Assembly: GCA_016210115.1 (NCBI GenBank)
Contig: JACQUW010000312.1
Location: 3-64,002 of the forward strand
From: Deltaproteobacteria bacterium
GTDB lineage: Bacteria; Desulfobacterota; Binatia; UBA9968
DNA: 64,000 bases
Direction of reading: 5' to 3'
Part shown: in pieces, positions 3,898 to 55,838 of the stretch
Position numbering within the stretch: position 1 is the stretch's first letter
Layout of the letters: each line of letters starts with the position of its first letter
The notes under the pieces: generated by a model
The model's input: only the letters and a program-made list of their open reading frames with translations
What the model was told of the DNA's origin: nothing
The model's database searches: none
Made by a program: the position numbers and the translations under genes

Positions 3898-3915
3898 AAG
3901 GGCTCACAGAAATCC

Positions 3916-10602: not shown

Positions 10603-10695
10603 TCATCGCGAAATGAGAACGTGCTCAAAAGTATCTCTGGTGGTGGCGGTATTCGATCGGTGACCCGCCAACTTCCGTTATGTCAAAAGCCCTCC

Positions 10696-10794: not shown

Positions 10795-10853
10795 AATCGA
10801 AGGTGAATAAGCCCGCAGTGCCACCTGCCAATTCAACAACAATGGGATGAGAG

Positions 10854-11906: not shown

Positions 11907-11921
11907 AGAAGCAGGAAACCC

Positions 11922-13313: not shown

Positions 13314-13347
13314 GTTTTCCACGGTATGTTCAGGAAGGAATTTTGAA

Positions 13348-14346: not shown

Positions 14347-14369
14347 GAAGAGAGAAGGAGTTCAGAGCA

Positions 14370-23918: not shown

Positions 23919-23962
23919 GGTTTAACTCCGGTTGCGGCGGTACTCCGTTATCTATCCATGAA

Positions 23963-24829: not shown

Positions 24830-24910
24830 CGTCGTTGCTTGCCCCTGTCATTACGCAATTCGAAAGGGAGAAACGGACTGGAACACGCTCCCCCGAAACA
24901 GGCTCTCAGC

Positions 24911-39906: not shown

Positions 39907-40978
39907 AATACCTCCAGAAAGACTTTAAACGTTCTAGTCTAAGCTGTAAAGCCCAGGAGATGCCACGCGCGGTCCCTATTAGCACGAGAATGCCCGTGGC
40001 GAGCATTGCCCAGGTTGCCGGCTCCGGCACCACCTGCGCCTGATAAGCGAAATCGAATTCGCTTATGCCGCCCGTGGAAACGACTCCCTGTGCCGTGAAG
40101 TACCAGTCCGTGGCCGAAGGGAAAAGAAACTGTAGTGTGCTCCCTTCCGGAATCGCGTAGAATGATTGAATCGACTGGATTATGCCGTCCAAAGTCACCA
40201 GTGGATTGAAGAGAGATGTGCCGCCGAGTGTGACGCTTGGGCCGAAGGCATCGAGGGGGAGTTCCATCATTCGAGTTTCGAATCGAAGCTCCGACAACAC
40301 GATCTCGCTCACGGCATCGTTGGTATAGGAAAAGCTCCAGCCCTCTGTTGGACTGGTCGCGTTCAGAGCCACCTGGTTCATTCCCATTTCCACCGTATGC
40401 AGCGCCACCCGGCTGGCTGCCTGAGTCTTCTTATCATCAAAGGTCCAGAAGGAGTCTTTCAGAGAGACTTTGTCCTTAAAGGCCTTATTCTCGACATTCA
40501 CCTGCGCGCCAAAGGTCAACCTGTTGCCTTGACCAAATTGAAAGGCTTTGCCTTTGTTCATGGTTTCCCATGCCAAACGCATTTTATCAAATCGATAGGT
40601 GGCGCCGCCTGGCGCGCCTGGCACCTTGGCCTGGAACTGGTCCAGACCTTTGATGACGACCTCGGTATCAAAATCGAATCGAGGATCCTTGAGGGTCTTG
40701 GGATCGAGGCCGTCTTGGGTGTTGGGCACGAGGATGTTTTGTCCCGCGACGAATCCGGGGATAGCGCGCTCGGCCAGTGTCGGGAGTGCCGGACTGTTAT
40801 TCTGCCCCAAACGCGAGCCTAGCAACTCGAGATCCATATCAAAGCCTATGATCTTGTCCGTTGGGACCGGCGTCTTCGTTGCGGGGTCGATCGGGGCAGC
40901 GAAATTGTAGGAGATGCTGATCGCGAAGGCGCCGGATGGGGCGGCAAGGATCACAAGCGCAACAAGCAGGATAAGCAT
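39896..40978 (-). CDS. PEP-CTERM sorting domain surface protein
   Basis: signal peptide; VVPEPATWAMLATGILVLIG followed by basic residues. Confidence 0.85.
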   Translation of the reverse strand: MLILLVALVILAAPSGAFAISISYNFAAPIDPATKTPVPTDKIIGFDMDLELLGSRLGQNNSPALPTLAERAIPGFVAGQNILVPNTQDGLDPKTLKDPRFDFDTEVVIKGLDQFQAKVPGAPGGATYRFDKMRLAWETMNKGKAFQFGQGNRLTFGAQVNVENKAFKDKVSLKDSFWTFDDKKTQAASRVALHTVEMGMNQVALNATSPTEGWSFSYTNDAVSEIVLSELRFETRMMELPLDAFGPSVTLGGTSLFNPLVTLDGIIQSIQSFYAIPEGSTLQFLFPSATDWYFTAQGVVSTGGISEFDFAYQAQVVPEPATWAMLATGILVLIGTARGISWALQLRLERLKSFWRYCER

Positions 40979-41332
40979 GGCTCCCTCCTGGAGGCGCGGA
41001 TGGTAAATGTAAATAGCCCGCCCAACCTGAGATGGGGCCTTTCCGGACCCCCTTGGTGAAGCGCGCGGAGCTGCTATGTCGGGAGGTTTTGTCGGCGGGT
41101 CTTACTTCGCGTATAGCCTGAATTGCAGAATTGTCAAGATGCAAATCTTTATCTCTCTTGTCCAGGAATCCCGTCGCCAAACGAGACCCGAGAGGTGCGC
41201 GAGAATGAAGCTTGATTCGAAAATTTCCCCCTGCTATTCCGTGGCATTGACGATCATGAAATACTATGGAAGTCAGTGGACTCGCCGCGCTGTTACCGCG
41301 CTATGAGTGTGCAGGACACTTATGGAGGTTCC

Positions 41333-42307
41333 ATGAGTAGAAAACGATTGTGCTTCTATGCCGCTCTTTATTTGGCGACGACCATCGGCGCGACCGCAGC
41401 GCAGGCGAAGGAGCGAGTGAATCTTATTTATGCTTCTATCAGCGGCTTGTTTCTTGGAACCTGGGTTGCCCAGGAGGCGGGCTATTTTGATCGCGAAAAC
41501 CTGGAAGTGAATCTCATCTATATTCAAAGCGCCAGCACCGCACTCCAGGCGATGCTTGCAGGCGAAGCGCCGCTCGCGCTCGCCGGGGGCGAGCCGGTTG
41601 TCGAATCGGGGCTTAAGGGAGGCGACGCCGTCTTTGTAGCCGGGATATCCGTTGTCCCGGCCGTCCATGTCATGGCCGTCCCGGAAATCCGCTCGGTCCA
41701 AGATCTTCGGGGAAAGCCGGTGGGGGTGACCCGCTATGGCTCCTCTACGGATTACGCGATGCGCCAGGTGCTCAGAATCAATGGTCTGGAGCCGGTCCGC
41801 GATGTTCCCGTCCTGCAGATCAGCGGAGGTCATCGGGCGCTTGCGGCAGCGCTTTTGAAGCGGGCGGTTTACGCCGCTACGATTGCTCCACCGAACAGTC
41901 TCCGGGCCGAAAAAGGCGGCGCGAAGCTCCTAATAGACATGGCAAAATCGGGCATTTATTTCCCTTATTCATCCATCATCAGCACGCGATCCTACCTAAA
42001 GAAGAACCGGCCGACCGTTGTGGCTTTTCTCACGGGATACTCAGAGGGCCTCAAGCGAATGGTAAACGATAAGAAACTAAGCATAGCGACCCTGAGAAAA
42101 CATATGCGGGAGGAAGATCCGGAAGTTCTGGAAACCATCTACAAGTATGCTCTGGATTACATCGTGAGAGTTCCCCATCCGACCAGGGAGGGGATCGCCG
42201 AAGTCTTGCGCCAAAGCACGGATCCAAAGGCCAAGAGTATGAGCCCAGAGAGTTTCATCGACGACAGCATTGTCCGCGAGTTGGAGCAGAAGGGTTTTTA
42301 TCGTTGA
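41333..42307 (+). CDS. NitT/TauT-type ABC substrate-binding protein
   Basis: GKPVGVTRYGSSTD, FIDDSIVRELEQKGF. Confidence 0.9.
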   Translation: MSRKRLCFYAALYLATTIGATAAQAKERVNLIYASISGLFLGTWVAQEAGYFDRENLEVNLIYIQSASTALQAMLAGEAPLALAGGEPVVESGLKGGDAVFVAGISVVPAVHVMAVPEIRSVQDLRGKPVGVTRYGSSTDYAMRQVLRINGLEPVRDVPVLQISGGHRALAAALLKRAVYAATIAPPNSLRAEKGGAKLLIDMAKSGIYFPYSSIISTRSYLKKNRPTVVAFLTGYSEGLKRMVNDKKLSIATLRKHMREEDPEVLETIYKYALDYIVRVPHPTREGIAEVLRQSTDPKAKSMSPESFIDDSIVRELEQKGFYR

Positions 42308-42395
42308 TTTTCATCCAGAGGACGTAGCTGACGTTCTTGCGCAAAATCAGGGGTAGTCTGGTGGGAGCTGGAGTCCGGAAAAAAGAAAGTACCTT

Positions 42396-42658
42396 GATTC
42401 CCGCTTCCGCGGGAATGGTCATTATTTGGGGATCACCCTTGACAATGAAAGCAGTGACCGAAGGGCAGGCGTGAAGGCGAATAAATCTGGGTTCCCGCTT
42501 TCGCGGGAACGACGGATGTAGGGGGCCCGCTTTGGAAACAACCCGAAGGAAGGGTTTCACCATGAACCGTCACCCCCGAATGTTTTTATCGGGGGTCCAG
42601 GTCCGACTTAGAAGCCGCGGATGCCTTACTGGCCGCCCGGCTTCCGCGGGAATGACGG
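42396..42658. repeat. cluster of REP-like palindromes
   Basis: GATTCCCGCTTCCGCGGGAATG, GGGTTCCCGCTTTCGCGGGAACGAC, GTCACCCCCGA...TCGGGGGTCCA, CCGCGGGAATGAC. Confidence 0.75.
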
Positions 42659-42739
42659 AGGGAGAGATACGCCCTGTGCTCCTGATAACAAAAGCAGCTT
42701 GATGTCTTTTACGGTCCAAATTTTAAGAGGAGAGAAGCG

Positions 42740-44470
42740 GTGACGCCAGCGCTCGATCCGATCGTTCTTGAATTGGTTCATTCCAAAGTGACCAGCATTG
42801 TTGAGGAGATGCGGGTGGTTTTGTTCCACAGCGGCTACTCGACGGTTTTGCGGGAATCCGAAGACGGCAGCGCCGGATTGCTGGACGCCGAACTCCGCAC
42901 GCTCGCTGTCTCTAAGAAGCTGCCCTTCCATTTTGCTTCGTTTTCCGCCATTGCGGATTATCTCCCTCGTTATTATCCGGCTGAGCAGCTGGAAGAGGGC
43001 GACGTCATTTTGTTTAACCATCCTTACCAGGGCAATGTCACCCACACCTCAGACACGGTAACGTTGATGCCGGTATTCGCGCACGGAGAGCTCATCGGAT
43101 ACGCCGGAACGCTTGCTCACAAGCCGGACGTTGGCGGGCTGAGGGGCTTGGCTTCAGCGCGGGATCTCTGGGAGGAAGGGCTCGTGATTCCGCCCGTCAA
43201 GTATTGCAGCCGCGGTGAGACCAATCGCGACCTTGAGCATCTTGTCTCTGCCAACAGCCGGATCCCGGTGGAAACACTCGGGGATCTTCGCGGTCAGGTC
43301 GCGGCTTGCCGCGTTGGGGCCCGCCGATTAAAGGAGCTATGCTCTCGATTTGGCGTTTCAACCCTCATCGCGAGTTGCCGAGAGCTGACGAATCGGGTAG
43401 CGCAACGGCTGCGCGATACTTTAACGGCCCTGCCGGATGGCGTCCAAGAGGCCGAGGGGATATTGGATCACGACGGGGTCAATCTCAACCGGCCGCTTCG
43501 AGCGCACGTCCTGGCGACAAAGCGCGCAGCCGAGATCTTGTTCGATTTCAGCGGCTCTGATGAACAGGCGCAGGGAGCCGTCAATGTCACATCCGCCATG
43601 ATCAAGAACAGTTGCTATTGTGGGGTCATGGCTATGACCGATCCCAATCTGCCTTTTAATCATGGTTTTGTGGAGGTCGTACAAACCCGGTTCAAAGAAG
43701 GGACCATTGTCTGTCCTCGACCGGGCGCCGCGGTTTCCCATTATACTCCTCTGGCTCACCTGGCCTGCGATATGGTGATCAAAACGCTCGGAGAGTTCTG
43801 TCCGGACAAAGCTGCCGCTTCCGCCGGTGGCGGAGGCTCGATACGCATTATGGGAACGAGCCCGGTTTCGGGAAAAAACTGGATCATGATGGAGCTTCTG
43901 AATACCGCGCAAGGAGCGACCAGCGCTGCCGATGGCGTATCGCTCATCCACGGGCCCCTCGGCGCGGGACAGTTTCGGCCAGGGCCCATCGAGATCCATG
44001 AGACCGAATTCCCGATCCGCATCAGCCGTTTTGACGTGCGCGCCGATTCGGGCGGGCCGGGGCGGTTCCGCGGCGGAATGGGAAGCGCTCGCGAGTATCA
44101 GGTCTTGGAGGAGGCTGTGGTGCCCGTGCGCAGTCTTAAAGGAAGCCTGAGGAGCAAGCTCCCACCCTGGGGAGTGTTCGGCGGCCGGGCCGCGCGTATC
44201 GGCAATATCTTCGTCAATGGCGTCGAGGTTCCGGCCGGAACCCGGGAGGTGAGCGTCGGGCCTGGAGACGTGGTACAGGTGCATACAAATGCCGGAGGCG
44301 GTTATGGCGATCCACTCAAGCGAGATCCTGAGAAGGTTCTGACGGATGTTTTGGATGGGTATGTAACGGTCGAGAGTGCTCGTGAGGACTACGGCGTTGT
44401 GATCGACCTGCAAAATTTCGCCGTCGATTTGGAAGGGACTCGCGAGTTACGACGGAGAAGGACAGTGTAA
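42740..44470 (+). CDS. hydantoinase B/oxoprolinase family protein
   Basis: YSTVLRESED, NHPYQGNVTHTSD, DSGGPGRFRGG, GGGYGDP. Confidence 0.92.
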   Translation: MTPALDPIVLELVHSKVTSIVEEMRVVLFHSGYSTVLRESEDGSAGLLDAELRTLAVSKKLPFHFASFSAIADYLPRYYPAEQLEEGDVILFNHPYQGNVTHTSDTVTLMPVFAHGELIGYAGTLAHKPDVGGLRGLASARDLWEEGLVIPPVKYCSRGETNRDLEHLVSANSRIPVETLGDLRGQVAACRVGARRLKELCSRFGVSTLIASCRELTNRVAQRLRDTLTALPDGVQEAEGILDHDGVNLNRPLRAHVLATKRAAEILFDFSGSDEQAQGAVNVTSAMIKNSCYCGVMAMTDPNLPFNHGFVEVVQTRFKEGTIVCPRPGAAVSHYTPLAHLACDMVIKTLGEFCPDKAAASAGGGGSIRIMGTSPVSGKNWIMMELLNTAQGATSAADGVSLIHGPLGAGQFRPGPIEIHETEFPIRISRFDVRADSGGPGRFRGGMGSAREYQVLEEAVVPVRSLKGSLRSKLPPWGVFGGRAARIGNIFVNGVEVPAGTREVSVGPGDVVQVHTNAGGGYGDPLKRDPEKVLTDVLDGYVTVESAREDYGVVIDLQNFAVDLEGTRELRRRRTV

Positions 44471-44473
44471 CAG

Positions 44474-45463
44474 ATGGCGAAGATCAGCTTTGGCGTCGCC
44501 CTCTACGGCACGGAAGAAGCAATGAGAGGCGTTGAGCTCGCGAAACTGGCGGACGCACTCGGCTATCAAAGTTTCTGGGTCGGGGATTCCCACATGATCT
44601 GGCGCGAACTCTACGTCTTGCTCGGGGCGGCAGGGTTGGCCACGAAACGCCTGCGGCTTGGACCGGGCGTCACTCATCCGGGCGTTCGCCACTTGACCGT
44701 GACGGCGAGCGCCATGGTCACCTTAAACGAGGTGACAAACGGGCGGGCGCTGTTGGGATTCGGTGTCGGAGCCACAGGTCCTGAAAATATCGGAATCAAG
44801 CCCGTCACTGTTGGGCAACTTGAGGAGGCGGTGAGATTACTGAGGAAGCTCACGGCTGGCGAAGAGATCCGCATCAGTGATAAGAGCATGAGATGCGTGT
44901 TTGCGTCTCGGCCGCGAATCCCGATCTACATCGGCACAAGATCTTCTAAAGCCATGCAGATGGCGGCGCGTCTGGCTGATGGAATTATCTACACGGGCGA
45001 AGAAGCCTCGGTGCAACCCATTGTAGATGCGATGCGAACGTTCTCTGCTCAGGCTGGACGCGGAGGAGGCGAGGTCAAGGTGGTATACAGAATCCCTTGT
45101 TCCGTTGCCGATGATCCTTATGAAGCCAGGTATGCGGTTAGAGGAAAAATCGCCCGCACGGCGATGACGCACCTCGGGAGATTGCACAAAATGGGCAAGC
45201 TTGAGGACGAAGAGGACCGGAGAGCCGTGGAGCGTCTTTGGGATTTTTACGACACCTATCATCACATGGGTCCCGAGCATTCCCACCTGGTCCGGGAAGA
45301 GTGGGTGGACCGATTTGCCGTGGCAGGAACGCCGGAACAGGTACAGGAGAGAATACGGAACGTCATCAAATTGGGCGTCGACGAGATAACCATCATCCCC
45401 TTTGGCGACTCGAAAGAATTTGTTATCAAGACCTTCGCCAAAGAAGTTATGGAGAAACTCTAG
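44474..45463 (+). CDS. LLM-class flavin/F420-dependent oxidoreductase
   Basis: FWVGDSH, LRLGPGVT, GRALLGFGVG, AGTPEQV. Confidence 0.9.
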   Translation: MAKISFGVALYGTEEAMRGVELAKLADALGYQSFWVGDSHMIWRELYVLLGAAGLATKRLRLGPGVTHPGVRHLTVTASAMVTLNEVTNGRALLGFGVGATGPENIGIKPVTVGQLEEAVRLLRKLTAGEEIRISDKSMRCVFASRPRIPIYIGTRSSKAMQMAARLADGIIYTGEEASVQPIVDAMRTFSAQAGRGGGEVKVVYRIPCSVADDPYEARYAVRGKIARTAMTHLGRLHKMGKLEDEEDRRAVERLWDFYDTYHHMGPEHSHLVREEWVDRFAVAGTPEQVQERIRNVIKLGVDEITIIPFGDSKEFVIKTFAKEVMEKL

Positions 45464-45523
45464 TGAGACTGAGAAAACTCAGGGGTGCCCATTAACGAGA
45501 ATTTAACACGGGAAGGGAAATAT

Positions 45524-47242
45524 ATGGCTGCTGAATACGGTTCCGACGTGATTGTTGATCTCATGAAGGCTTATGAGATCGAATATGCGGCCCTGAATCC
45601 GGGATCGTCTTTTCGCGGCCTGCACGATTCGCTCGTGAATTACGGCGGCAACAAGAACCCGGAGGTGATTCTCTGTTGTCACGAGGAGGTTGCCGTCTCG
45701 ATGGCATACGGTTACGCGCGGGTCACCGGGAAGCCTATGGTTGCGATCGTGCATGATCTCGTCGGGCTTCAGCACGCCAGCATGGCGATCTACAACGCAT
45801 GGACCAGCCGGACTCCGATCATTGTGATGGGTGGAACCGGACCGATGGATACCAGCAAGCGAAGGAGCGGGATTGATTGGACTCACACCGCGCTGGTCCA
45901 GGGAAACCTTGTCCGTGATTATGCCAAATGGGACGATCAGCCCGCCAGCGTTCGGGCCATTCCAGAATCATTTATCCGCGCTTACAACCTTAGCTGCACG
46001 GATCCAAAGGGGCCGGTATACCTTTGCTATGATGTCACCGTGCAGGAAGAGAAATTGGACGAGCCGATCTCACTTCCCGAGCCTGGCCGCTATCCCCTGC
46101 ATCTGCCCATGCAGGCGCCGGAGGAGGGATTCGAGAAGACCATCTCGTGGCTGGGGAAATCCCGGCGGCCCGTGATCATCGCGGAATCCTCGGGGCGAAC
46201 GGAACCCGCCTTCAACGCGTTAATTGAACTGTCCGAGCTGCTTATGATCCCGGTTTTGGATCGCGGGGGAAGGCTCAACTTCCCTATGCTCCATTCATTG
46301 AATCTTACCGGGCAGGAAAAAAAGGCCCTCTCCAGGGCCGACCTGGTGTTGGCCTTCGACGTTGCCGATCTTTCCGGCGCGACCAGGAGCGCGCCACCGG
46401 AAGCCAAAATCATCCACGTCCGTTTGAATGATCTTCTGGTCCGGAGCTGGTCTCAGGACTACGACGAGCCGCCGAAGGTCGATCTCTCGGTTTTTGCGGC
46501 AACGGAGATTTTCCTTCCGGAACTGGTCCGCCGGATCAAGGAAGCAAAGGGATTGCGGGAGCGATTCAAAGCAAGCGCCGGCGAGCGGGGAAGTGAAATC
46601 CAAAAGCTTAGTTCTGAGTTGGAGCAGGCGCTGAATGAGGAAAAAGAAAAGAAATGGGAGGAGACCCCGATCTCGTCAGTCCGCCTTTGCGCGGAGCTGG
46701 CTGAACTTTTGAACCGAGAGGATTTCGTTCTTACCAATGGCAGCTCCAATCATAAAGAGCGGCATTTCCTGGATTGTCGCAAGTTCAACCAATCTCTCGG
46801 AAAGCGACGCTTTGGCGGAGTTGGAAACGGCCTTCCCGGCTCTCTAGGCGCGGCACTCGCCTTAAAGCGGTCCAACAAGCTCTGTGTGGGGATTCAGCCG
46901 GACGGCGACTTTCTATTCAATCCAAGCGCGCTATGGACCGCCGCGCACTATGAAATCCCGTTGCTGATGATTGTTTTCAACAATCGCTCCTACTATAACG
47001 ACGAAGAGCATCAAGCGGTGATGGCCCGCCGAAGAGGACGTCCGGTGGAGAATAAGACCATAGGAATACGACTCGATAAGCCGGCTGTAAACTTTGCCAG
47101 ATTGGCCGAGACTTACGAAGTGCGCGGCTTCGGTCCGGTTACGCAACCCTCGGCGCTGCGCCAGGCGCTTCGTGAAGGCGCGGATTATGTCAAAGAAAAG
47201 AGGTTGCCCGCGGTTGTGGATGTGGTGATGCAGAACAGATAA
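45524..47242 (+). CDS. thiamine pyrophosphate-binding enzyme (acetolactate synthase/benzoylformate decarboxylase-like)
   Basis: NPGSSFRGLHDS, HEEVAVSMA, DGDFLF...NN. Confidence 0.9.
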   Translation: MAAEYGSDVIVDLMKAYEIEYAALNPGSSFRGLHDSLVNYGGNKNPEVILCCHEEVAVSMAYGYARVTGKPMVAIVHDLVGLQHASMAIYNAWTSRTPIIVMGGTGPMDTSKRRSGIDWTHTALVQGNLVRDYAKWDDQPASVRAIPESFIRAYNLSCTDPKGPVYLCYDVTVQEEKLDEPISLPEPGRYPLHLPMQAPEEGFEKTISWLGKSRRPVIIAESSGRTEPAFNALIELSELLMIPVLDRGGRLNFPMLHSLNLTGQEKKALSRADLVLAFDVADLSGATRSAPPEAKIIHVRLNDLLVRSWSQDYDEPPKVDLSVFAATEIFLPELVRRIKEAKGLRERFKASAGERGSEIQKLSSELEQALNEEKEKKWEETPISSVRLCAELAELLNREDFVLTNGSSNHKERHFLDCRKFNQSLGKRRFGGVGNGLPGSLGAALALKRSNKLCVGIQPDGDFLFNPSALWTAAHYEIPLLMIVFNNRSYYNDEEHQAVMARRRGRPVENKTIGIRLDKPAVNFARLAETYEVRGFGPVTQPSALRQALREGADYVKEKRLPAVVDVVMQNR

Positions 47243-47283
47243 AAAGTAGAAGCGAAAAAGACGTCAAGAGGCGGGAAGCATAG

Positions 47284-48315
47284 ATGATGGAACAGTACGT
47301 CGATCAGATCCCGGACGATCTGGCGGCGGCTTTTGATTGGTGTCTCGAACATGAACTGACGGACGGCCTTCCTGTAGTGCCGCCCAGCCGTCGCCTTATA
47401 GAGGCCATGGTGGAGCGCGGGCGGCGAGAGGCCGCGGAGGTCTTAGGCCGTCTTGCGCCGAGTAATCAGGAATTCACCGTTCTCGATCTGGCGGTAAACG
47501 CCGTCATGGCGGGCTGCCTTCCCGATTATTTCCCCGTGGTTCTCGCGGCTGCCGAAGCCATGCTGGACCCGCGTTTCCGCGCCGGCGAAGTCCAGGCTAC
47601 GTCCCGCCCCTGCGGCCCCATGATCATCGTCAATGGGCCGATTGCAAAGCGATTAGGGATCGAGCACTTCAACCATTGCTTTGGCTCCGGTTTCCGAGCG
47701 AACGCAACGATCGGCCGGAGTCTACGGCTGGTCCTGATGAATCTGGGCGGCGGGAGACCTGGAAGGGGAGACGCTGCAGCTTTCGGTTGGCCCGGAAAGA
47801 TCTCATTTTGTTGGGCAGAAAACGAAGACCCGAAGTTGAATCCGTGGGAGCCTTTGCACGTGGAGCGGGACTTTTCTCCAGAGGAAAGCGCCGTCACCGT
47901 GGCTGCCGTGAACGGCTATTACAACTGTTCGGGGGGACGCCCCTCCGTAGCGGAAGCGATGAGGATGTTTGGCTTTTCAATGTCGAACGCGACGGATCAC
48001 CTGCTATGGCACGGCCAACCGATTCTTGTAATGGGCATCGAGAAAGCGGGCATGATGAGACAAGCAGGAATCACCAAGGGAGAGGCGAAGAGGCTTCTTT
48101 TCGAGCAGGCGCAAGCGCCGGCTTCGGCGCTTTCGGATGAAGTTCTTTTGGAGCTCAAGAAAAGCCGCATGGATTTGAATCCTTCAGGTATGCTTAGCGT
48201 CGCAGACAGCGCGGAAGACATTATCCTCGCAGTCGCCGGAGGCTGGGGCCCTCACTCGGTTTTTCTCCCCACTTTACCGAGCTCGCAGGCGGTCACAAAG
48301 AAAATTATGGAGTAG
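47284..48315 (+). CDS. UGSC-associated 'TDGLP' family protein 2
   Basis: LTDGLPVVPPS, AVNAVMAGC, ANATIGRSLRL, GWPG, PWEPLH. Confidence 0.85.
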   Translation: MMEQYVDQIPDDLAAAFDWCLEHELTDGLPVVPPSRRLIEAMVERGRREAAEVLGRLAPSNQEFTVLDLAVNAVMAGCLPDYFPVVLAAAEAMLDPRFRAGEVQATSRPCGPMIIVNGPIAKRLGIEHFNHCFGSGFRANATIGRSLRLVLMNLGGGRPGRGDAAAFGWPGKISFCWAENEDPKLNPWEPLHVERDFSPEESAVTVAAVNGYYNCSGGRPSVAEAMRMFGFSMSNATDHLLWHGQPILVMGIEKAGMMRQAGITKGEAKRLLFEQAQAPASALSDEVLLELKKSRMDLNPSGMLSVADSAEDIILAVAGGWGPHSVFLPTLPSSQAVTKKIME

Positions 48316-48349
48316 ATGGCAGGTCGTCAGTCGAGGGAAAGGAGGCGAC

Positions 48350-48916
48350 ATGGCAGTTATTTTGGATCCGGTGGGCCAGGTGAGAGGTGGAGAGCGGCAG
48401 CTCAACCCGCGCCTCAACTCTCTTGACGGGAAAACGATCGGAGTGATCGTGAATGGCCAGCCCAATGCGCCGGTGGTATTGGGATACGTGGCCGAGCTTT
48501 TGCAGAAAGATTTTCCTTCCGCTCAAATCATCATTCGAACCAAACCAAGCTACAGGAACCGCGCTCCGGAGGAGATTCTAAGCGAGATGAGCGCGAGGGC
48601 GCATGTGGTGATTACCGGGCTGGGCGCCTGAGGCTCCTGCACGTCGTGGAGTGTCCACGATGGAATCGAGATGGAAAAGCGAGGAAAGGTAGCGGTGACG
48701 GTCGTGGAGGATGTTTTTGTGACCCTCGCGAAAGGAGAGAGAAAGGCGCTCGGAATGCCTTCGTTCCCGCTGGTCGTGGTGCCGCATCATAACTCCGCGG
48801 ATGCCGTGAGGGATCAGGTTCGAAATGAAGTGGCCGAGGCTCTGCCGAAAATCTTAGAGGCGTTGACACAATCCACAATAGGTGAGGCCGCAGCCGATTC
48901 CTTTGCGCCGGCTTAA
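48350..48916 (+). CDS. UGSC-family selenoprotein (Sec codon TGA 48629-48631), 188 aa
   Basis: TGLGA-TGA-GSCTSWSVHD joins track ORFs 48350-48631 and 48671-48916 in frame; RBS AAGGAGG. Confidence 0.9.
48642..48662 (+). promoter_or_regulatory. putative bacterial SECIS hairpin
   Basis: CGTCGTGGA-GTG-TCCACGATG, 9-bp stem with one G-U; core 12 nt after TGA. Confidence 0.75.
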
Positions 48917-49060
48917 GTGAGGGAGCTTGTAAGGCGCCAAGCGCACGGCGCAAAGAGGATGGCCTGAAAAAGCGCTCAACTATATGGCCCGGCCCCGCGC
49001 CTGTCCGGGGCACGACTTATTTTAAAGAATCCGATCTAGAGAGAAAAAGAGGATAGTAAT

Positions 49061-50089
49061 TTGGCGACTGCACGCGCGCGATCATTAGAAATTCCCGACG
49101 CGCCCAACGAGGCTTTTGATTGGTTTGTCAACCAGAGGATGACTGACGGGCTTCCGGTTATTCCGCCGACGGAAGAAAGAGTCGACGCCGTGTTGGGCGG
49201 CACGCGAAGAGAACGCGCGGAAGAGATCGGGCTCATACCGCCGCGATGGGCAAGCGGCACGGTGGAAAAGCTTGCCATCAATGCGGTGATGGCTGGATGT
49301 CTCCCTGAATACATGCCCGTGCTGCTCGCCGCCGTGGAAGCGCTTCTTGACCCGCGCTACAACGTATACGGTACCCAGGCAACGACCCATCCGGGCGCTC
49401 CAATGGTCATTGTGCATGGTCCTGCCGCCAAGCAACTCCAAATCGCTTCCGGGAGCGGCTGTTTTGGACCGGGCTATAGGCCCAATCTCACAATCGGCCG
49501 CGCGATAAGATTATTTCTCGTGAATGTGGGCGGTTCCTTGCCCACCGAGGGCACGATGTCCACGTTTGGCTGGCCGGGCCGCTATTCATTTTGCTGGGCA
49601 GAGGCTGAAGAGGCGAGTCCATGGTCGCCGTACCATGCCGACAAGGGTTTTGACGCGAACCAGAGCGCGGTTACCGTGGCGCACATCGGCGGCTTTACAG
49701 ATATTCACGATCCGTACAGCAAGTCGGCTCCCAGCCTGCTCAAGTCTCTTGCTTACGGCATGACAAGCAAGAGCACCAATATTGGAGGCGGCGGTAATCC
49801 CGCCTGTGTCTTAAGCCCCGCGCATGCCCGCCTCCTCGCCCGGGAGGGAGTTTCGAAAACTGACGTTCGAAAGTATCTCTGCGAAAATGCCCGGGCTCAG
49901 CCTCGCCGGCTCGGTATGGAGAGCGTCGAAAATTTCGAGCGCACCACGATCGACTCGGAAGGGCTGCTGCGGATAGCCGACGAAGAGGAGGGAATTCAAA
50001 TCCTCGTCGCGGGAGGAGAGGGACCCCACTCCGCCGGCCTGTTCACATGGGGCCGCGAATCTCTCTGGGTCACCAAGGCTGTTCAGTAG
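49061..50089 (+). CDS. UGSC-associated 'TDGLP' family protein 3
   Basis: MTDGLPVIPPT, AINAVMAGC, TIGRAIRL, GWPG. Confidence 0.85.
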   Translation: MATARARSLEIPDAPNEAFDWFVNQRMTDGLPVIPPTEERVDAVLGGTRRERAEEIGLIPPRWASGTVEKLAINAVMAGCLPEYMPVLLAAVEALLDPRYNVYGTQATTHPGAPMVIVHGPAAKQLQIASGSGCFGPGYRPNLTIGRAIRLFLVNVGGSLPTEGTMSTFGWPGRYSFCWAEAEEASPWSPYHADKGFDANQSAVTVAHIGGFTDIHDPYSKSAPSLLKSLAYGMTSKSTNIGGGGNPACVLSPAHARLLAREGVSKTDVRKYLCENARAQPRRLGMESVENFERTTIDSEGLLRIADEEEGIQILVAGGEGPHSAGLFTWGRESLWVTKAVQ

Positions 50090-50102
50090 ACATGATTTCG
50101 GA

Positions 50103-50477
50103 TTGCGGTTGGGGAGTGCCGTGATGCTGGATTCACTGTTTAGTCCAACGACCGTGGCTGTGGTTGGCGCCAGCGCCAAGCCGCAAAAGCGGGGCAATGC
50201 TTTCCTTCGTTTTTTCCTCAACAGCGGGTTTGGGGGAGAGCTTTATCCGATCAGTCCCAGATACCAAGAGGTGCTTGGGCTCAAATGCTACCCTGCGCTT
50301 GCGGATGTTCCGGGTTCAGTCGATTACGTTGTTTGCTGCCTTCCAGCGCAGTCCGTGCTTCCGCTGGTGGAAGAGTGCGGGCGCAAAGGGACCCGACTGC
50401 TGCACATCTACAGTGCCGGTTTCAGTGAGACCGCCATTGCGCTCGGCAAGTACCTTCGTTATGACGGGGAGGCATGA
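50103..50477 (+). pseudogene. truncated acetate-CoA ligase (ADP-forming)-like gene; CoA-binding domain only
   Basis: LFSPTTVAVVGAS...YSAGFSET, then similarity ends abruptly. Confidence 0.65.
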
Positions 50478-51535
50478 TGGGTCGGTGGTTTGGCGCTTCG
50501 GTGGCGTCGATAAAGAAGCGGCTTTTAATCTTTAGCGCGCTTTTTGGTCTTGCGTTTCTCAGCGGCGTTAGCCGGGCGGCACAGATCGACGAACACGAGC
50601 GCAAACTCGTCGAGGGCGCGAAGAAGGAAGGGCGGATGGTTTACTACACCGCGATGAGCATTGAGGATGCGCGCGCGCTTGCCCAGGGATTCGAAAGCAA
50701 ATATGCCTTTATCAAAACCGACATCTTCCGTTCAGGTCACGAACGAATTCTTAGCCGGCTTAATGTAGAACATAAGACCGGCCGGCACGCGGCGGATGCC
50801 GTGATCGTCGGCGAGTTTGAAATCCATCATCTCAAAAAGCTCGGCCTCATAGCCCCCTATCACTCGCCCAGAGCGGCAGGTTTTACCGAAGGGCTCAAGG
50901 ACCCGGATGGATATTGGACCGATGTTTACGACAATCTGGTAGTCACGGCCTATAACGTAAACAAGGTCAAGCCCGAAGAGATTCCTCGACGCTACGAAGA
51001 CCTTCTTCATCCTCGTTGGAAAGGCCGAATGGCCCTCGATCACAACGAGGATCGCTGGGTTTCGAATTTACTTTCCATTATGGGAAAAGAAAAAGGGGTT
51101 GAATTTTTGCGCGCTTTGTCCAAACAAAACATCTATATACGCCGCGGCCGCTCCCTCATTACGCAGCTTCTTCTCGCCGGGGAATTTGATCTTCAGATTA
51201 CCGCTTACTGGTATCGGGTTCATCGGCTCATGCGAAGCGGAGCGCCGCTGCGCTGGGTCGGAATAGAGCCGGCGCTGCTGGCTTTGCACCCGATCAGTTT
51301 AGCGGTGAACGCGCCGCATCCGAACGCAGCCAGGCTTTTTATTGATTATGTTGTTTCCGAAGAGGGACAGATCGTGTTTGCCCGGCGCGGCCGGGAAGCG
51401 GCGAGACCGGGTATTAAACCGGAAGGATTTCCGGGGCAGCTGAAAGTTCTTCCGAGCCGTCCCCAATTGGCTGAGAATCTGGAGGAGAACAACCGGCTTT
51501 TCGAGGCGCTTTTCTTAAAGGGAGTGAGCCCATGA
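50474..51535 (+). CDS. extracellular solute-binding protein (Fe3+-type ABC family)
   Basis: DLLHPRWKG, APHPNAARLFIDY. Confidence 0.9.
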   Translation: MMGRWFGASVASIKKRLLIFSALFGLAFLSGVSRAAQIDEHERKLVEGAKKEGRMVYYTAMSIEDARALAQGFESKYAFIKTDIFRSGHERILSRLNVEHKTGRHAADAVIVGEFEIHHLKKLGLIAPYHSPRAAGFTEGLKDPDGYWTDVYDNLVVTAYNVNKVKPEEIPRRYEDLLHPRWKGRMALDHNEDRWVSNLLSIMGKEKGVEFLRALSKQNIYIRRGRSLITQLLLAGEFDLQITAYWYRVHRLMRSGAPLRWVGIEPALLALHPISLAVNAPHPNAARLFIDYVVSEEGQIVFARRGREAARPGIKPEGFPGQLKVLPSRPQLAENLEENNRLFEALFLKGVSP

Positions 51536-52449
51536 AGAACCCAGTCCCTATCAAAGCAGGCTACGCCACGATCGGACAGGGGGCAGGCCCGATGATTGTG
51601 ACCGAGCGGGCCGGTCTGTTTCTAAAATACGGACTAGAGGTAGAGACGCGGTTGATGCACGGGGCGCGGGGAGTCGTGCGCGGACTGATGAACGGCGAGA
51701 TCGAGTTCGGCAACCTGGCGGCGCCGGCGCTGCTGCGGACGGTTTTAGCGGAAGGCGCGGATCTGGTCTTTCTCACCGGTGGAATTAACCAGCAGTTCTT
51801 GATGGGTCGCCCGGGAATTAAAAACCGGAACCAGTTGTCGGGGGCGAGAATCGGTTTTGCCGGCGACGGTGGCTTAAATGACGTTCTGGTTCGCTTCCTC
51901 CTGCGTCAATTGGAAAAGGAGGGCATCCATGGTATTCAATTGGTCACCGGTTCCGAGTCAGGAACAGAGAGGCTTTCAGCCCTCGTTCAGGGAAAACGCG
52001 ATGCCGAAATCATTACCCCTCCCGAAGCCATTGAGGCCAAAAGGCAAGGCTGTTCTTTTTTGATTGATTTTGCCGAGTACGGGTTGAATTTTGCTTTAGG
52101 CGGCATTGCGGCCCGCCGCGCGTATATTCGGGAGCATGAAGATGTCACGCGGCGTTTCATCCGAGCCTACGTGGAGGGGATGCATCGTTACCGGACCGAT
52201 CGGCTTTTCACAGTCGGGGTTCAACAAGAGTATAGCGGGCTTTCGGATCGCTCGGTGGCGGAAGAGACCTACGATCTCACGCAGCCAGGAATGCCGCGGA
52301 TTCCCTATCCGGTGGTTTCAGCTTTGGGTACGGCGCTGCACGTCATGGCCGGAGAATTGAAGGAAGCGGCTACAGCAGATGCCCTGGGATTCGTGGATGA
52401 TCGGTTTGTCCGGGAGATCGACGACCAGGGGCTGGTTCCCTCGCTGTAA
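51532..52449 (+). CDS. NitT/TauT-type substrate-binding-like protein lacking a signal peptide
   Basis: family motifs (RFIRAYVEG, IPYP, FVDDRFVREI); no hydrophobic N-terminus. Confidence 0.8.
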   Translation: MKNPVPIKAGYATIGQGAGPMIVTERAGLFLKYGLEVETRLMHGARGVVRGLMNGEIEFGNLAAPALLRTVLAEGADLVFLTGGINQQFLMGRPGIKNRNQLSGARIGFAGDGGLNDVLVRFLLRQLEKEGIHGIQLVTGSESGTERLSALVQGKRDAEIITPPEAIEAKRQGCSFLIDFAEYGLNFALGGIAARRAYIREHEDVTRRFIRAYVEGMHRYRTDRLFTVGVQQEYSGLSDRSVAEETYDLTQPGMPRIPYPVVSALGTALHVMAGELKEAATADALGFVDDRFVREIDDQGLVPSL

Positions 52450-52483
52450 CGTTTAGCGGTAAGTCGGTGGGAGGAAGACGTCA

Positions 52484-53494
52484 ATGAGATTTCTTATTAA
52501 AGTGATGGCATCGCTAGCTCTGCTCCTTTGTGTTCCGGCGCCATCGCGTGGTCAGGACGCCAGACTGGCTAAGGCCAGAGAGGAACGGAAGGTCGTCGTC
52601 TACAACACGACTACCGTCCCGGACATGCAGAGGCTCAGCGATGAGTTCCGCAAGAAGTATCCGTTCTTAGAGGTCGAGTCCTTCCGCTCCGCCGGTGAGC
52701 GGCTCATACAGAAAATCATCACTGAAATCCGGGCGGGCCGTTATCTGGCTGACGCTTACATCATCAGCGGGCTCCAGATGTGGCTTTTGCGTGATGCGGG
52801 ACACGTGGTTCCCTATCTTTCGCCTGAAAGAGAAGGAGTCATGAAGGCATTTAAGGATCAGCCCGGGTACTGGACCGGAGTCTATTTTAATCTGGAAGTG
52901 ATCGGGTATAACACCAATCTTGTCTCACAGCGCGAGTTCCCCAAAAAATGGGAAGACCTTCTGGATCCCAGGTGGAAAGGCCGCATGATGCTCGAGGCTG
53001 AAGACATCCCCTGGTTTGCTTCATTGCTGCAGCTGCTGGGCGAAGAAAAAGCCATGGATTTCGCCCGGCGCCTGGCGAAGCAGCAGCTTCAGATCCGCAG
53101 AGGTCATACGCTTATTTCACAATTAGTGGCAGCGGGCGAAAGCGCTCTCTCCCCTACGGTCCGGGTCAATATCGCCGAGACGCTCAAAAAGAAGGGCGCT
53201 CCGGTAGACTGGCTCGCCATCGAGCCCATAGCGCCGAACCCGCCCGTTTCCATCGGGCTCCCGAAAAACAGTCCTCATCCCAATGCCGCCCGATTGTTCA
53301 TCGATTTTATCCTGTCGCGCGAGGGGCAGTCGGTTGTTCGTAGTCTCAACCGGAATCCCACCCGTGGCGATGTGGAGCAGCCGGTTCCACGGGCTTCCAA
53401 GATAAAAATCTTCGAGATGAATTGGGACCGGGTGGTCAAAAATTACAGCCGGTACGTCAAAGACTTCAATGAGATCTTCGGAGTGAGTGAATAA
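52484..53494 (+). CDS. extracellular solute-binding protein (Fe3+-type ABC family)
   Basis: DLLDPRWKG, SPHPNAARLFIDF. Confidence 0.9.
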   Translation: MRFLIKVMASLALLLCVPAPSRGQDARLAKAREERKVVVYNTTTVPDMQRLSDEFRKKYPFLEVESFRSAGERLIQKIITEIRAGRYLADAYIISGLQMWLLRDAGHVVPYLSPEREGVMKAFKDQPGYWTGVYFNLEVIGYNTNLVSQREFPKKWEDLLDPRWKGRMMLEAEDIPWFASLLQLLGEEKAMDFARRLAKQQLQIRRGHTLISQLVAAGESALSPTVRVNIAETLKKKGAPVDWLAIEPIAPNPPVSIGLPKNSPHPNAARLFIDFILSREGQSVVRSLNRNPTRGDVEQPVPRASKIKIFEMNWDRVVKNYSRYVKDFNEIFGVSE

Positions 53495-53530
53495 GAAAAA
53501 CAAAGAAATCATTTTGGATTGGAGAAATCT

Positions 53531-54553
53531 ATGCCCAGGGAAATAGAAGTCATCGATGCCGACGGTCACATTACTGAGGAGGATAGCCAACTCAAAGAAT
53601 TTATGGAGCCGCCCTACCGGGACCGGCGCGCGGTTCTGTATCCTAAAGATAATTGGGATAGATCGCTGGGGGGGACGTTGGGGACCAGGGCCCGGGATGC
53701 GAAGAGCTGGCTTGATGCCATGGACCAGGGTGGGATCTCTACCGCGGTTCTTTTCCCTACCGATGGCTTGGGAATCGGGTGGATTCGTGAGCCCGACTAC
53801 GCGGTCGCCTTGTGTAAGGCGTGGAACGACTTCGTTTCGGAAAAATTCCAGAAAGTAAGTCCCCGGCTTAGAGGCATCGCGCTGGTCCCGCTTCAGGACG
53901 TCGCCGAGGGCGTGAAGGAGATGCGCCGCGCGATAAAAGAGCTCAAGCTCGCCGGAGTCATGCTTCCGGGCGTCGGCTTAAGAAAACCGCTGGGCCATTC
54001 CGACTACTGGCCTATTTACGAAGAGGCGGAAAGATTGGACTGCATGGTGGGTGTCCACGCCACCGTCCGCGGTCCACATTATTATGCTGCCGAGATATTC
54101 GACGATTTTATCGACGTCCACACGCTATCCCACGCATTCGCGCAGATGACGCAGATGACGAGCATCGTCCTGCGCGGCGTGCTCGAGAAATTCACCAGTC
54201 TCAGAATTGCGTTCATGGAGGCGGGCTGTTCGTGGGTTCCTTACTGGATGGGAAGGATGAACGAAGAGTGGGAGAAGCGGGGAAAGGCGGAAGCTCCCCG
54301 CTGCAAGAAAAAACCGAGTGAGTACATTACGAGCGGGCGGGTTTACCTTCATGCGGAAGACTATGAGCCGCTGATAGGTTCGACCGCTGAGGTGTTGAGT
54401 CATAAAGTTCTTTATTACGCCTCCGATTGGCCTCATTGGGACAACGAGTTTCCCGAGAACATTGACCACCTTTCAAATCGAAAGGATCTTTCTCCCGAGG
54501 CGAAGAAGTGGCTGATGGCGGAAACGTCAAAGAAGCTCTACAAACTTGGCTAG
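53531..54553 (+). CDS. amidohydrolase family 2 protein
   Basis: IDADGHI, FMEAGCSWVP, YASDWPHWD. Confidence 0.9.
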   Translation: MPREIEVIDADGHITEEDSQLKEFMEPPYRDRRAVLYPKDNWDRSLGGTLGTRARDAKSWLDAMDQGGISTAVLFPTDGLGIGWIREPDYAVALCKAWNDFVSEKFQKVSPRLRGIALVPLQDVAEGVKEMRRAIKELKLAGVMLPGVGLRKPLGHSDYWPIYEEAERLDCMVGVHATVRGPHYYAAEIFDDFIDVHTLSHAFAQMTQMTSIVLRGVLEKFTSLRIAFMEAGCSWVPYWMGRMNEEWEKRGKAEAPRCKKKPSEYITSGRVYLHAEDYEPLIGSTAEVLSHKVLYYASDWPHWDNEFPENIDHLSNRKDLSPEAKKWLMAETSKKLYKLG

Positions 54554-54593
54554 GAGGATTTTGCACCCGCGAGTTGCGAGGAAGGATGTATTT

Positions 54594-54710
54594 GCGGTCT
54601 CTGATCATCCCAAAGCTAGCGAAGCCGATCCCAAAGAGTTTTTCGATAACCGCCTGCTGAAAGAACTGGAAGACTCCGGGTTCGTTCAGGACGTCTACGG
54701 TAAACGCTAG
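54594..54710 (+). pseudogene. 3' remnant of NitT/TauT substrate-binding protein
   Basis: DHPKASEADPKEFFDNRLLKELEDSGFVQDVYGKR*. Confidence 0.7.
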
Positions 54711-54836
54711 GTTCGGGAAAGTTGGTCATTCCCACGATCTTGGCCGGCCGAAAACTATACGGTTCTAATCCGCTTAAATCGGGCCACCCCTTGGTTCGAG
54801 ATTCCTCCGGCGCGTTCCCACAAAAACAGCGCTCTC

Positions 54837-55838
54837 ATGGAAGCCTCCGGTCGTAGACTTCTCATCGCCATAGTTTTTCTGTGCCTGGCGTTAATCATCG
54901 GGGTAGTGGGGTACCAATTGGTCGAGGGATGGAGCTTATTCGATTCCCTCTATATGACGGTCATTACCCTGGCAACCGTGGGGTATGGGGAAACGCATCC
55001 GCTGAGTCCTACCGGAAGAGTTTTCACGATGTTTCTCATCATCATCGGAGTGGGGGTGCTGACGTACGGATTGACCGCTGTCACAACCTTTGTCGTCGAA
55101 GGAGCGCTCGCAGACATTATCGGGAGAAGGAGAATGGAAGCGGGGATCACAAAGCTAAAAGACCATGTTATCGTTTGTGGAATCGGAGAGACGGGCCGGC
55201 ACATTGCGGAGGAATTTCTAAAAATCCGCGTCCCTTTCATTGTCATTGATAAAGACGCTGAGACCATCAAACATATGCGAAAGATCGGGCCATTTCTCTT
55301 CATCGAAGGCGATGCGTCCGATGATGAGGTTCTGTTGCAGGCCCGAATCCAACACGCTCGCGGCCTGGTGACGACCATACCGCATGACAGGGATAACGTC
55401 TTCGTGATTTTGACGGCGCGGGGCCTGAACCCGGGCCTTCGGATTGTCACCCGGCTAATTGAGGAGGAGGCCAGGGCCAAGCTCCAGAAGGCGGGGGCCG
55501 ACGCGATCGTCTCAACGAACTTCATCGGAGGTCTCCGAATGGCTTCGGAGATGGTTCGCCCTACAGTGGTTTCGTTCCTGGACAAGATGCTGCGAGCGGC
55601 TACTGCCGACGTGAGAGTGTCAGAAGCCAAGATTCCGTCCGGTTCACGGCTGATCGGCAAGACACTCGGAGAAGCGGGGATCTATGAAAAGACGGCGCTG
55701 ACCGTGATTTCCATAGCGCGGGATGATTCTTTCGAATTAAATCCCAGCCCCGATAGCCGCCTTAAGGAAGGGGATGGTCTCATCGTTTGCTGCTCGGCCG
55801 AGCAACTCAAAAAACTCGTCGATTGTATCGCGGTATAA
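54837..55838 (+). CDS. potassium channel with RCK/TrkA domains (MthK-like)
   Basis: TVGYG filter, 2 TM helices, CGIGETG Rossmann motif. Confidence 0.93.
   Translation: MEASGRRLLIAIVFLCLALIIGVVGYQLVEGWSLFDSLYMTVITLATVGYGETHPLSPTGRVFTMFLIIIGVGVLTYGLTAVTTFVVEGALADIIGRRRMEAGITKLKDHVIVCGIGETGRHIAEEFLKIRVPFIVIDKDAETIKHMRKIGPFLFIEGDASDDEVLLQARIQHARGLVTTIPHDRDNVFVILTARGLNPGLRIVTRLIEEEARAKLQKAGADAIVSTNFIGGLRMASEMVRPTVVSFLDKMLRAATADVRVSEAKIPSGSRLIGKTLGEAGIYEKTALTVISIARDDSFELNPSPDSRLKEGDGLIVCCSAEQLKKLVDCIAV

Follow-up and report, generated by a model that had tools for sequence, protein, structure and literature searches.

A 64,000-nucleotide stretch of a Binatia genome (Deltaproteobacteria bacterium, assembly GCA_016210115.1, contig JACQUW010000312.1), called the window below, carries at 47284-50089 a set of three genes, module 2: UGSC2, a member of the UGSC selenoprotein family, lies between TDGLP-A and TDGLP-B, two paralogues of a second family, here designated TDGLP. 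Comparison of gene arrangement across genomes shows TDGLP to be a near-obligate genomic partner of UGSC, adjacent to it or fused with it in either order. Comparative sequence evidence likewise shows UGSC2 to be a genuine selenoprotein, with selenocysteine (Sec) inserted at TGA 48629-48631 under a conserved selenocysteine insertion sequence (SECIS) hairpin. That UGSC and TDGLP together form one enzyme is very probable, and a defined partner turns the orphan UGSC into an enzyme that can be tested.

The partnership of UGSC and TDGLP

The genome from which the window comes has six UGSC genes and seven TDGLP genes, and each UGSC gene is followed directly by a TDGLP gene (6/6). Three of the six pairs are single open reading frames (ORFs) of the form UGSC-linker-TDGLP, in which the Sec TGA is the only internal stop. 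An expanded selenoenzyme system had been supposed in an earlier, sequence-only reading of the window, and both these gene numbers and the varied contexts of the genes bear it out. The fused ORFs, of 547-569 amino acids (aa), lie at C37:590-2233(-), C37:3399-5105(-) and C108:3181-4890(+) (loci L001 and L002). Contig C37 holds three modules in a row; the frame at 3399-5105 meets a second TGA just past a C-Q-C motif, to be read either as a stop or as a second Sec.

A survey that scanned one genome per species turned up 590 relatives of TDGLP; counts 'of 80' refer throughout to its best 80 loci. These come from Dehalococcoidia, Betaproteobacteria, Binatia, Methylomirabilota, Acidimicrobiia and others, and include one cultivated carrier, Robertmurraya sp. 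2P01SA (locus L030). UGSC adjoins TDGLP in 73 of these 80 other-genome loci, and both gene orders are found; in-frame fusions account for 20 pairs in 19 loci, one of them in reverse order. Sec is the rule, with CGSC found once and one copy degenerate. In a further set, this genome with 30 relatives (31 genomes, including the unpublished genome G209), both families occur in the same 25 genomes and neither occurs in the same six. There, 63 of 66 UGSC matches have a same-strand TDGLP within 1.3 kb, and conversely a UGSC accompanies 64 of 72 TDGLP matches; several unpaired matches lie at contig ends. Independent occurrence of TDGLP and UGSC genes would have told against the sequence-only reading; the two counts, 73/80 and 63/66, come out for linkage. 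Up to 12 paralogous UGSC-TDGLP pairs are present per genome.

Among the best 149 TDGLP representatives examined, the domain stands alone in 88, is joined to UGSC in 53 (49 UGSC-TDGLP and 4 TDGLP-UGSC) and is doubled in eight (TDGLP-TDGLP); gene callers cut many fusions short at the TGA. Queried with UGSC2, 2750 candidates yielded no longer fused form at E 1e-3, a weak negative that is contradicted by the fusions found with TDGLP. Against an obligate pairing stand the seven of 80 loci that have no adjacent UGSC (L026, L038, L049, L051, L063, L077 and L081). As to distribution, G004, the genome of L071 (its record labelled Candidatus Nitrosocosmicus), is an archaeon-labelled metagenome-assembled genome with eight TDGLP matches; their presence could be a real transfer or a binning artefact.

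Selenocysteine decoding of UGSC2

With TGA read as Sec, UGSC2 is a single 188-aa frame containing GLGA-U-GSC. It matches the Pfam UGSC family (PF24696) with E 6.1e-46 and 157.1 bits (cut-off 25), over profile positions 2-172 of 172. Against the NCBIfam equivalog NF041046 it reaches 118.3 bits, 6.7 under the cut-off of 125; since this falls just below the cut-off, UGSC2 is regarded as a diverged member of the family. Its identity to UGSC1 (8874-9428), the copy in module 1 of the window, is 40.9%. The column of the U/C position in the UGSC motif is invariant in 56 of 56 aligned sequences. A single in-frame TGA occurs at this codon in all six UGSC genes of the genome, and 80 UGSC genes from the 80 other-genome loci likewise have TGA there.

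The SECIS hairpin has a 9-bp stem, which begins 11 nt past the TGA, and a GUG loop. Folding energies of single-sequence hairpins are not significant against shuffles (z -1.56 and -1.49). For covariation, 60 nt around the TGA were taken from UGSC genes in the 80 other-genome loci, and 73 aligned in register. Across these 73 genes, 84.8% of cells pair in the helix (columns 23-43 of 48620-48679); two-sided changes occur in seven of the nine pairs, such as a swap from G-C to C-G in 15 sequences. Not one of 500 shuffles comes up to any of five measures, and the share of paired cells in slid controls is only 21-48%. The UGTS, UGSS and UGSCTPAV subfamilies have differing amino acids here, yet keep a hairpin, a different one, at the same distance from the TGA.

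The genome also encodes the decoding machinery: selA (605.7 bits) and selB (390.2 bits) lie side by side on contig C216, and there is one tRNA-Sec, with anticodon tca, on contig C32. Because the hairpin covaries, and because selA, selB and tRNA-Sec are present, the TGA is best understood as a Sec codon and not as a nonsense mutation. This is what had been argued earlier from the retention of both TGA and hairpin in a second, diverged UGSC gene, and both the argument and its premise hold. A true stop, which would leave the gene split or dead and yield no selenoprotein, is hardly credible: genetic code table 11 does read the frame as two ORFs, 48350-48631 and 48671-48916, but a TGA occupies the same codon in all six copies of the genome and in 80 genes elsewhere, both halves are conserved within one Pfam domain, and the covarying hairpin and the Sec machinery tell against it as well.

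Metagenome mapping used Logan contigs of four DNA runs from a single study. Depth over the module peaks at about 3750 and 4240 in the bin 48600-48693, where summed depth rises about 400-fold. The segment 48606-48660 is common to dozens of other metagenome contigs at no less than 90% identity, which fits nucleotide-level constraint on the SECIS. In the metagenome the SECIS stretch behaves like a repeat, and this organism's Logan contigs break there; across the TGA only one run (X1), a possible source of this DNA, bridges without differences, and the contigs of another (X2) end at 48608 and resume at 48631.

Sequence and fold of the two families

TDGLP forms 8074 representative clusters at E 1e-3 (2602 at 1e-30), yet it has no Pfam, NCBIfam or PDB entry. 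In one database at least 7869 of 8000 scored candidates are homologues, and those with names are all 'hypothetical'. Searches gave no Pfam match even at E up to 10, no NCBIfam match and, by sequence profile against PDB, no match at E up to 1.

Nineteen columns are invariant in an alignment of 116 members: D27, G28, P30, P34, A76, G77, Q104, G118, P119, N140, G144, R145, G155, G168, C176, E179, P187, W188 and G319. A further group (C78, T106, T107, H192, E194, H254 and H324) is kept in at least 90% of sequences. The core can be written D27-G-L-P30, A76-G-C78, Q104, N140, G144-R145, C176-x-x-E179 and P187-W188; of its two cysteines, C78 is kept in 115 of the 116 and C176 in all. The sequence-only reading had pictured a variable QATT/QATS loop that sets specificity; this does not stand, with Q104 kept in 116/116, T106 in 111/116 and T107 in 115/116. 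TDGLP-A, TDGLP-B and the copy in module 1 all retain every invariant column. From near-invariant residues TDGLP-A departs at E67L, T107S and H254K, and TDGLP-B at N117H, D163T and N180A.

The AF2 model of TDGLP-A has pLDDT 94.9 and pTM 0.93. Foldseek finds nothing for it at E 1e-3 or better; the best match is the alpha subunit of class I fumarate hydratase (7xky_A), at E 1.4e-3, probability 0.82 and TM 0.27-0.31. With VIA-align the best scores are Z 5.8 in a wide search and Z 5.5 in a second look, to encapsulin and chorismate mutase; a Toblerone-fold amide hydrolase (5hy2_B) gives Z 5.1 with a root-mean-square deviation (rmsd) of 5.5 over 148 residues, and fumarate hydratase Z 4.2 with rmsd 5.2 over 168 residues. 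All these VIA-align scores are under the tool's quoted chance range, and they barely cover the N-terminal 130 residues. Homology to class I fumarate hydratase finds no support in hhalign, which gave a probability of 0.27% against nine Fumerase domains. On the model, then, the TDGLP fold has no convincing relative.

For UGSC2 the AF2 model, built on a 56-sequence alignment (pLDDT 91.2), has five beta-alpha units in an alpha/beta/alpha arrangement, with Sec94 at the N-terminus of helix 95-110. Its structural matches (Foldseek E 1.5e-5; VIA Z up to 11.5) are generic flavodoxin-like proteins: flavodoxins, azoreductases, receiver domains and cobalamin-binding domains. No thioredoxin-fold chain is among the matches listed, and a profile search of PDB sequences gave only chance rows. 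The prediction for UGSC is accordingly a flavodoxin-like domain that carries Sec at the start of a helix; the available text of a 2008 paper guesses at a thioredoxin-like fold (PMC2398784).

Two TDGLP copies and a predicted dimer

That two TDGLP paralogues flank UGSC2, as first read from the sequence, is confirmed: they are 41.9% identical over 327 aa, and each is 38-43% identical to the TDGLP of module 1 (9550-10602). In a tree of 98 TDGLPs they are sisters (support 0.94), inside the clade of the UGSC-then-TDGLP type; the upstream TDGLP-A is therefore a duplicate, not an import from the lineage with the reverse order.

An A-B complex is predicted by ESMFold2, three runs giving ipSAE 0.94 and the best control 0.01; in the benchmark, 51 of 78 solved complexes attain the ipSAE mark, as do 2 of 108 mismatched pairs. 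Contacts agree between runs to at least 96%, with partner pLDDT at least 90. The modelled interface has about 330 contacts, and residues 27-33, the TDGLP motif, face residues 76-77 and 141-145 of the other chain; invariant residues would therefore form composite sites across the dimer. A sequence-profile search of PDB found no like complex solved.

Tandem TDGLP-TDGLP proteins (8/149) argue, independently of the dimer model, that two TDGLP units work together. Six such proteins, of about 710-740 aa, are P0123, P0147, P0148, P0217, P0245 and P0249. The different near-invariant departures in TDGLP-A and TDGLP-B are what an asymmetric heterodimer would allow. One feature of the modelling weighs on the other side: the prediction does not separate A-B from A-A or B-B, close cousins passing too. 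The complex modelled was that of TDGLP-A with TDGLP-B only, so that any contact between UGSC and TDGLP lies outside the model. An A-B heterodimer in module 2 is an evenly balanced proposition. Another tight TDGLP-UGSC-TDGLP layout was seen in none of the 30 relatives or 80 loci, and no close relative of TDGLP-A was confirmed in JGI metagenome contigs. From the layout and the predicted heterodimer comes a structural hypothesis that simple pairs do not need, namely a dimeric enzyme with composite sites.

Layout and genomic neighbourhood

Coordinates are collected in Table 1. The span of module 2 is exact, from the ATG of TDGLP-A to the final base of the stop codon of TDGLP-B. Domain matches in Pfam and NCBIfam uphold the earlier description of co-orientation with HyuB, an LLM oxidoreductase, a thiamine pyrophosphate (TPP) enzyme, solute-binding proteins (SBPs) and an amidohydrolase. 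Intergenic gaps from 42740 to 54553 are, in order, 3, 21, 41, 34, 144, 384, -4, 34 and 24 nt: from HyuB through UGSC2 they run from 3 to 41 nt, and are followed by 144 nt to TDGLP-B and 384 nt past it. On orientation and spacing only, we infer that the co-oriented genes of module 2 make up an operon. Terminator-like sites in 40900-55000 (15, against 15.4 expected) and promoter-like sites (1, against 6.1 expected) are not above shuffles.

Table 1. Features of module 2 and its surroundings, with module 1 for comparison
Feature	Position	Strand	Description and basis
NMT1-type SBP	41276-42307	+	Pfam
Hydantoinase_B (HyuB)	42740-44470	+	Pfam E 3.2e-133
Bac_luciferase (LLM-class oxidoreductase)	44474-45463	+	Pfam/NCBIfam
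TPP enzyme	45485-47242	+	Pfam/NCBIfam
TDGLP-A	47284-48315	+	343 aa, ATG start at 47284; extra partner copy, upstream; ORF list, translation
UGSC2	48350-48916	+	188-aa UGSC-family selenoprotein; Pfam PF24696
Sec codon TGA	48629-48631	+	In-frame; residue 94, motif U-G-S-C
SECIS hairpin	48642-48662	+	9-bp stem, GUG apical loop; fold and covariation
TDGLP-B	49061-50089	+	342 aa, TTG start, GAGGA 7 nt upstream; canonical downstream position
SBP_bac_6	50474-51535	+	Pfam; signal-peptide-like N-terminus
NMT1-like	51532-52449	+	Pfam; no signal-peptide-like N-terminus
SBP_bac_6	52484-53494	+	Pfam; signal-peptide-like N-terminus
Amidohydro_2	53519-54553	+	Pfam
Module 1: UGSC1 then TDGLP	8874-10602	+	UGSC1 8874-9428, TGA 9156-9158; TDGLP 9550-10602

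Neighbours in the 80 loci were counted to a distance of about 8 kb from TDGLP, with Pfam run also on 137 flanking ORFs of 40 loci. TctC is found in 22, LLM in 19, family III CoA-transferase in 16 and MmgE/PrpD in 10; Amidohydro_2 and SBP_bac_5 (7 each), NMT1 (4) and TPP enzymes (4) are rarer, and HyuB is near TDGLP in none of the 80. Some solute-binding or TRAP protein is present in 36. Such neighbours suit the import and degradation of small organic acids more than a metabolism of heterocycles or sulfonates, and the adjacent solute-binding proteins point to a route for finding substrates. To judge from gene content, the HyuB, LLM and TPP genes of module 2 are local company, outside the conserved unit.

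Module 1 lies in a co-oriented neighbourhood (8874-15344) of UGSC1, TDGLP, SBP_bac_6, MmgE/PrpD, an NMT1 binding protein and a D-2-hydroxyacid dehydrogenase. Of the two modules this one has the more usual setting, since MmgE/PrpD recurs in 10 of the 80 loci elsewhere.

Other details of the window belong here. The 144-nt spacer between UGSC2 and TDGLP-B (48917-49060) holds a GC-rich hairpin, a T-rich run and then a good ribosome-binding site; the stability of the hairpin is no better than that of shuffles (z +1.18). The NMT1-like gene at 51532-52449 overlaps the preceding binding-protein gene by 4 nt and lacks the signal-peptide-like N-terminus of the five other binding proteins inspected; this could reflect a cytoplasmic product or a wrongly assigned start. 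Hydantoinase_B occurs alone twice, in the 21684-25993 (-) region and at 42740-44470 (+), each time with an NMT1-type binding protein nearby and no adjacent Hydantoinase_A; the first of these genes has an acetone-carboxylase-gamma-like C-terminus and a metallo-beta-lactamase-fold gene alongside. In a search confined to the window, and not extended to the rest of the genome, the ORFs flanking HyuB (41276-42307 and 44474-45463) gave no Pfam match to Hydantoinase_A.

The proposed enzyme and its alternatives

Clues to the chemistry come from the domains that TDGLP is fused to. P0188 (695 aa) joins TDGLP to a Pyr_redox_2 module (E 6.1e-41) with the CAVC motif of thioredoxin reductases, and three TDGLPs have C-terminal CxxC domains of 80-100 aa. 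TDGLP occurs in 14 of 201 genomes of an Actinomycetota sample; in five of seven loci fetched from that phylum (L083, L084, L087, L088 and L089) it bears a CxxC domain at the N-terminus and, after that, a conserved R-P-G-C-G-S peptide; this peptide is similar to the U-G-S motif of UGSC and may reach the active site where UGSC is absent. In ESM Atlas clusters of the TDGLP fold, AhpC-TSA or Redoxin is found on 14-25% of members. Together, the fusions and these clusters point to thiol/selenol-disulfide exchange feeding TDGLP. The motif at the U position itself is UxxC in 71 and CxxC in 12 of 108 tabulated pairs; the UGTS and UGSS variants lack its second Cys. All seven U/CxxS pairs keep C176 of TDGLP, too few to mean anything.

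These observations can be put together as a selenol/thiol reductase of two components that is fed by thioredoxin and whose substrates are small imported organic acids. As a whole this is the explanation we moderately favour, and we hold about the same degree of confidence in thioredoxin-fed redox chemistry taken by itself. The sister paralogues TDGLP-A and TDGLP-B would most likely pair as a heterodimer served by the single UGSC; the D-G-L-P loop of one chain would reach A-G-C78 and T-I-G-R145 of the other and so bring conserved polar and Cys residues together in composite sites at the interface. Electrons would pass from NADPH to thioredoxin reductase and on to the U-x-x-C of UGSC (or, in other lineages, to the CxxC domain); from UGSC they would go to Cys78/Cys176 of TDGLP, or Sec might act directly on the bound substrate. 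The substrate would most likely be a small imported organic acid, differing between paralogues. The thioredoxin-type fusions point to an assay with NADPH, thioredoxin reductase and thioredoxin.

Several observations weigh against such a reductase. The CxxC domains resemble thioredoxin-fold families below threshold only (for the N-terminal one, Thioredoxin E 0.02 and TraF E 0.003), and the C-terminal ones have a weak match, also below threshold, to NifU (E 0.0085). Thioredoxin-reductase-like genes lie near the pair in only two of 80 loci, and the neighbour counts that suggest organic acids are descriptive, carry no background rates and are not enrichments. Of 16 full-length fusions, four carry some residue other than Sec or Cys at the U position, and the fused U-S-T-C subfamily lacks both C78 and C176 (A at 78, T at 176); no single Cys relay can therefore hold family-wide. 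The U-S-T-C subfamily is conserved and single-copy, represented by L096:874-2490 (G221) with like frames in G206, G207, G209, G219, G222 and G229; its N-terminal half alone matched the TDGLP-A query.

A second perspective supposes a non-redox enzyme for unsaturated or alpha-substituted carboxylates (an isomerase, racemase or lyase) that uses Sec (or Cys78) as covalent nucleophile or acid-base catalyst and in which thioredoxin-type modules serve only to keep the selenol reduced. MmgE/PrpD beside the pair in 10 of 80 loci would suit it, as would the scarcity of thioredoxin-reductase genes nearby, the UGSS and UGTS variants without the second motif Cys, and the fusions with neither Sec nor Cys. 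It is nevertheless unlikely, given the repeated independent fusions of TDGLP to CxxC domains, the one to a thioredoxin-reductase module, and the U-x-x-C that is mostly kept.

The function first proposed for module 2 was catabolism of heterocycles (hydantoin or lactam) or organosulfur compounds by a selenoenzyme system working with HyuB, LLM and TPP enzymes, its specificity set by variable TDGLP loops. The closely spaced co-oriented genes from HyuB to UGSC2, LLM-class genes in 19 of 80 loci and NMT1/SsuA-like SBPs on the module flanks all lend it something. It rests on neighbours local to the window, however: elsewhere HyuB is found in 0/80, TPP in 4/80 and NMT1 in 4/80 loci; no HyuA adjoins HyuB; SsuA-family scores are 72 and 38 bits, far under the cut-off of 163.5; and the supposed loop has Q104 invariant, with T106 and T107 nearly so. 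We think the proposal improbable.

Quite as improbable is a general antioxidant or detoxifying thiol-selenol oxidoreductase with TDGLP as accessory, the literature's assumption for UGSC. The portions of two reviews that are available place UGSC among redox selenoproteins with UxxC (PMC2398784, PMC13188914); some TDGLP clusters have AhpC-TSA or Redoxin domains, and loci L037 and L029 have neighbouring genes for glutathione peroxidase and DsbA. As many as 12 pairs of paralogues per genome, set among transporters and catabolic enzymes, are hard to square with that role, as are the many invariant polar residues of TDGLP, typical of a substrate pocket, and a UGSC model that is flavodoxin-like and not of the assumed thioredoxin-like fold.

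A metal or Fe-S hydro-lyase, with Cys78, Cys176 and Sec ligating an interface cluster like the three Cys of class I fumarate hydratase, draws on the best Foldseek matches (7xky_A), on the only hhalign segment, which puts A-G-C78-x-P-x-Y on the hydratase G-C-P-P-Y, and on a dicarboxylate- and tricarboxylate-type context, but is very unlikely in view of the hhalign probability and the sub-chance VIA-align score given above, the subfamilies without C176 or without both Cys, and thioredoxin-type fusions that fit disulfide exchange better.

If the favoured thioredoxin-fed reductase is taken to its full extent, the pair would represent a new class: a selenium-dependent, thioredoxin-linked reductase with a fold that has no solved relative, a TDGLP dimer with composite sites and flavodoxin-like Sec carriers, branched within single genomes into as many as a dozen paralogues with substrates of their own, for reductive steps in the catabolism of imported organic acids. 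Module 2 would then be a case of a homodimer turning into an asymmetric A-B heterodimer that shares one selenoprotein. So complete a picture is speculative, and we offer it tentatively.

Relation to known systems

Since 2007-2008 UGSC has figured in lists of selenoproteins without known function, and it is among the most abundant selenoproteins in GOS data, according to the accessible parts of the two papers concerned (PMC1976440, PMC2398784). Hyphomonas neptunium is among its carriers according to the first of them (PMC1976440). A 'UGSC/Unknown_1' fusion is mentioned in the portion available of the 2008 paper (PMC2398784); Unknown_1 is probably the TDGLP domain. Reviews of 2022 and 2026, in the parts accessible, still give UGSC without function, and a full-text literature search for 'UGSC' returned, in the text it covers, no description of the partner family, its dimer or its function. 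UGSC2 shares with the family reported by Zhang and Gladyshev (PF24696, NF041046) the domain, the U-G-S-C motif and the Sec codon. The family literature, as far as its text is available, gives no function, obligate partner or dimer and guesses at a thioredoxin-like structure; the model here is flavodoxin-like.

The best structural neighbours of TDGLP, though weak, are class I fumarate hydratase alpha and the Toblerone-fold cyclic amide hydrolases, whose substrates are small polar acids or amides. Their scores against TDGLP are below the chance range, and there is no match to a hidden Markov model of either family.

In the Grd and Prd systems a substrate-binding subunit works with a selenoprotein subunit in the reductive transformation of a small carboxylate, with electrons from a dithiol or thioredoxin. 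The proposed UGSC-TDGLP scheme is alike in outline to GrdB with GrdE (glycine/sarcosine/betaine reductase) and PrdB with PrdA (D-proline reductase). PrdB has a UxxC motif, according to a table in the part of the 2008 paper available (PMC2398784). The differences are as plain: no pyruvoyl-forming partner is evident here, and hmmscan at E up to 10 finds no Grd/Prd family match, UGSC2 giving UGSC and two chance rows only and the three TDGLPs nothing relevant, with no GrdE or PrdA match.

The thioredoxin-dependent Cys/Sec reductases (methionine sulfoxide reductases, ArsC and peroxiredoxins) are alike in placing Sec or Cys at a helix N-terminus, in having a resolving Cys and in being recycled by thioredoxin-type modules, for which UGSC-TDGLP has its CxxC and thioredoxin-reductase fusions. 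UGSC-TDGLP differs from them in combining a flavodoxin-like UGSC, as modelled, with a 340-aa domain that has no clear PDB relative, and in a catalytic unit that would be split over two proteins and a dimer.

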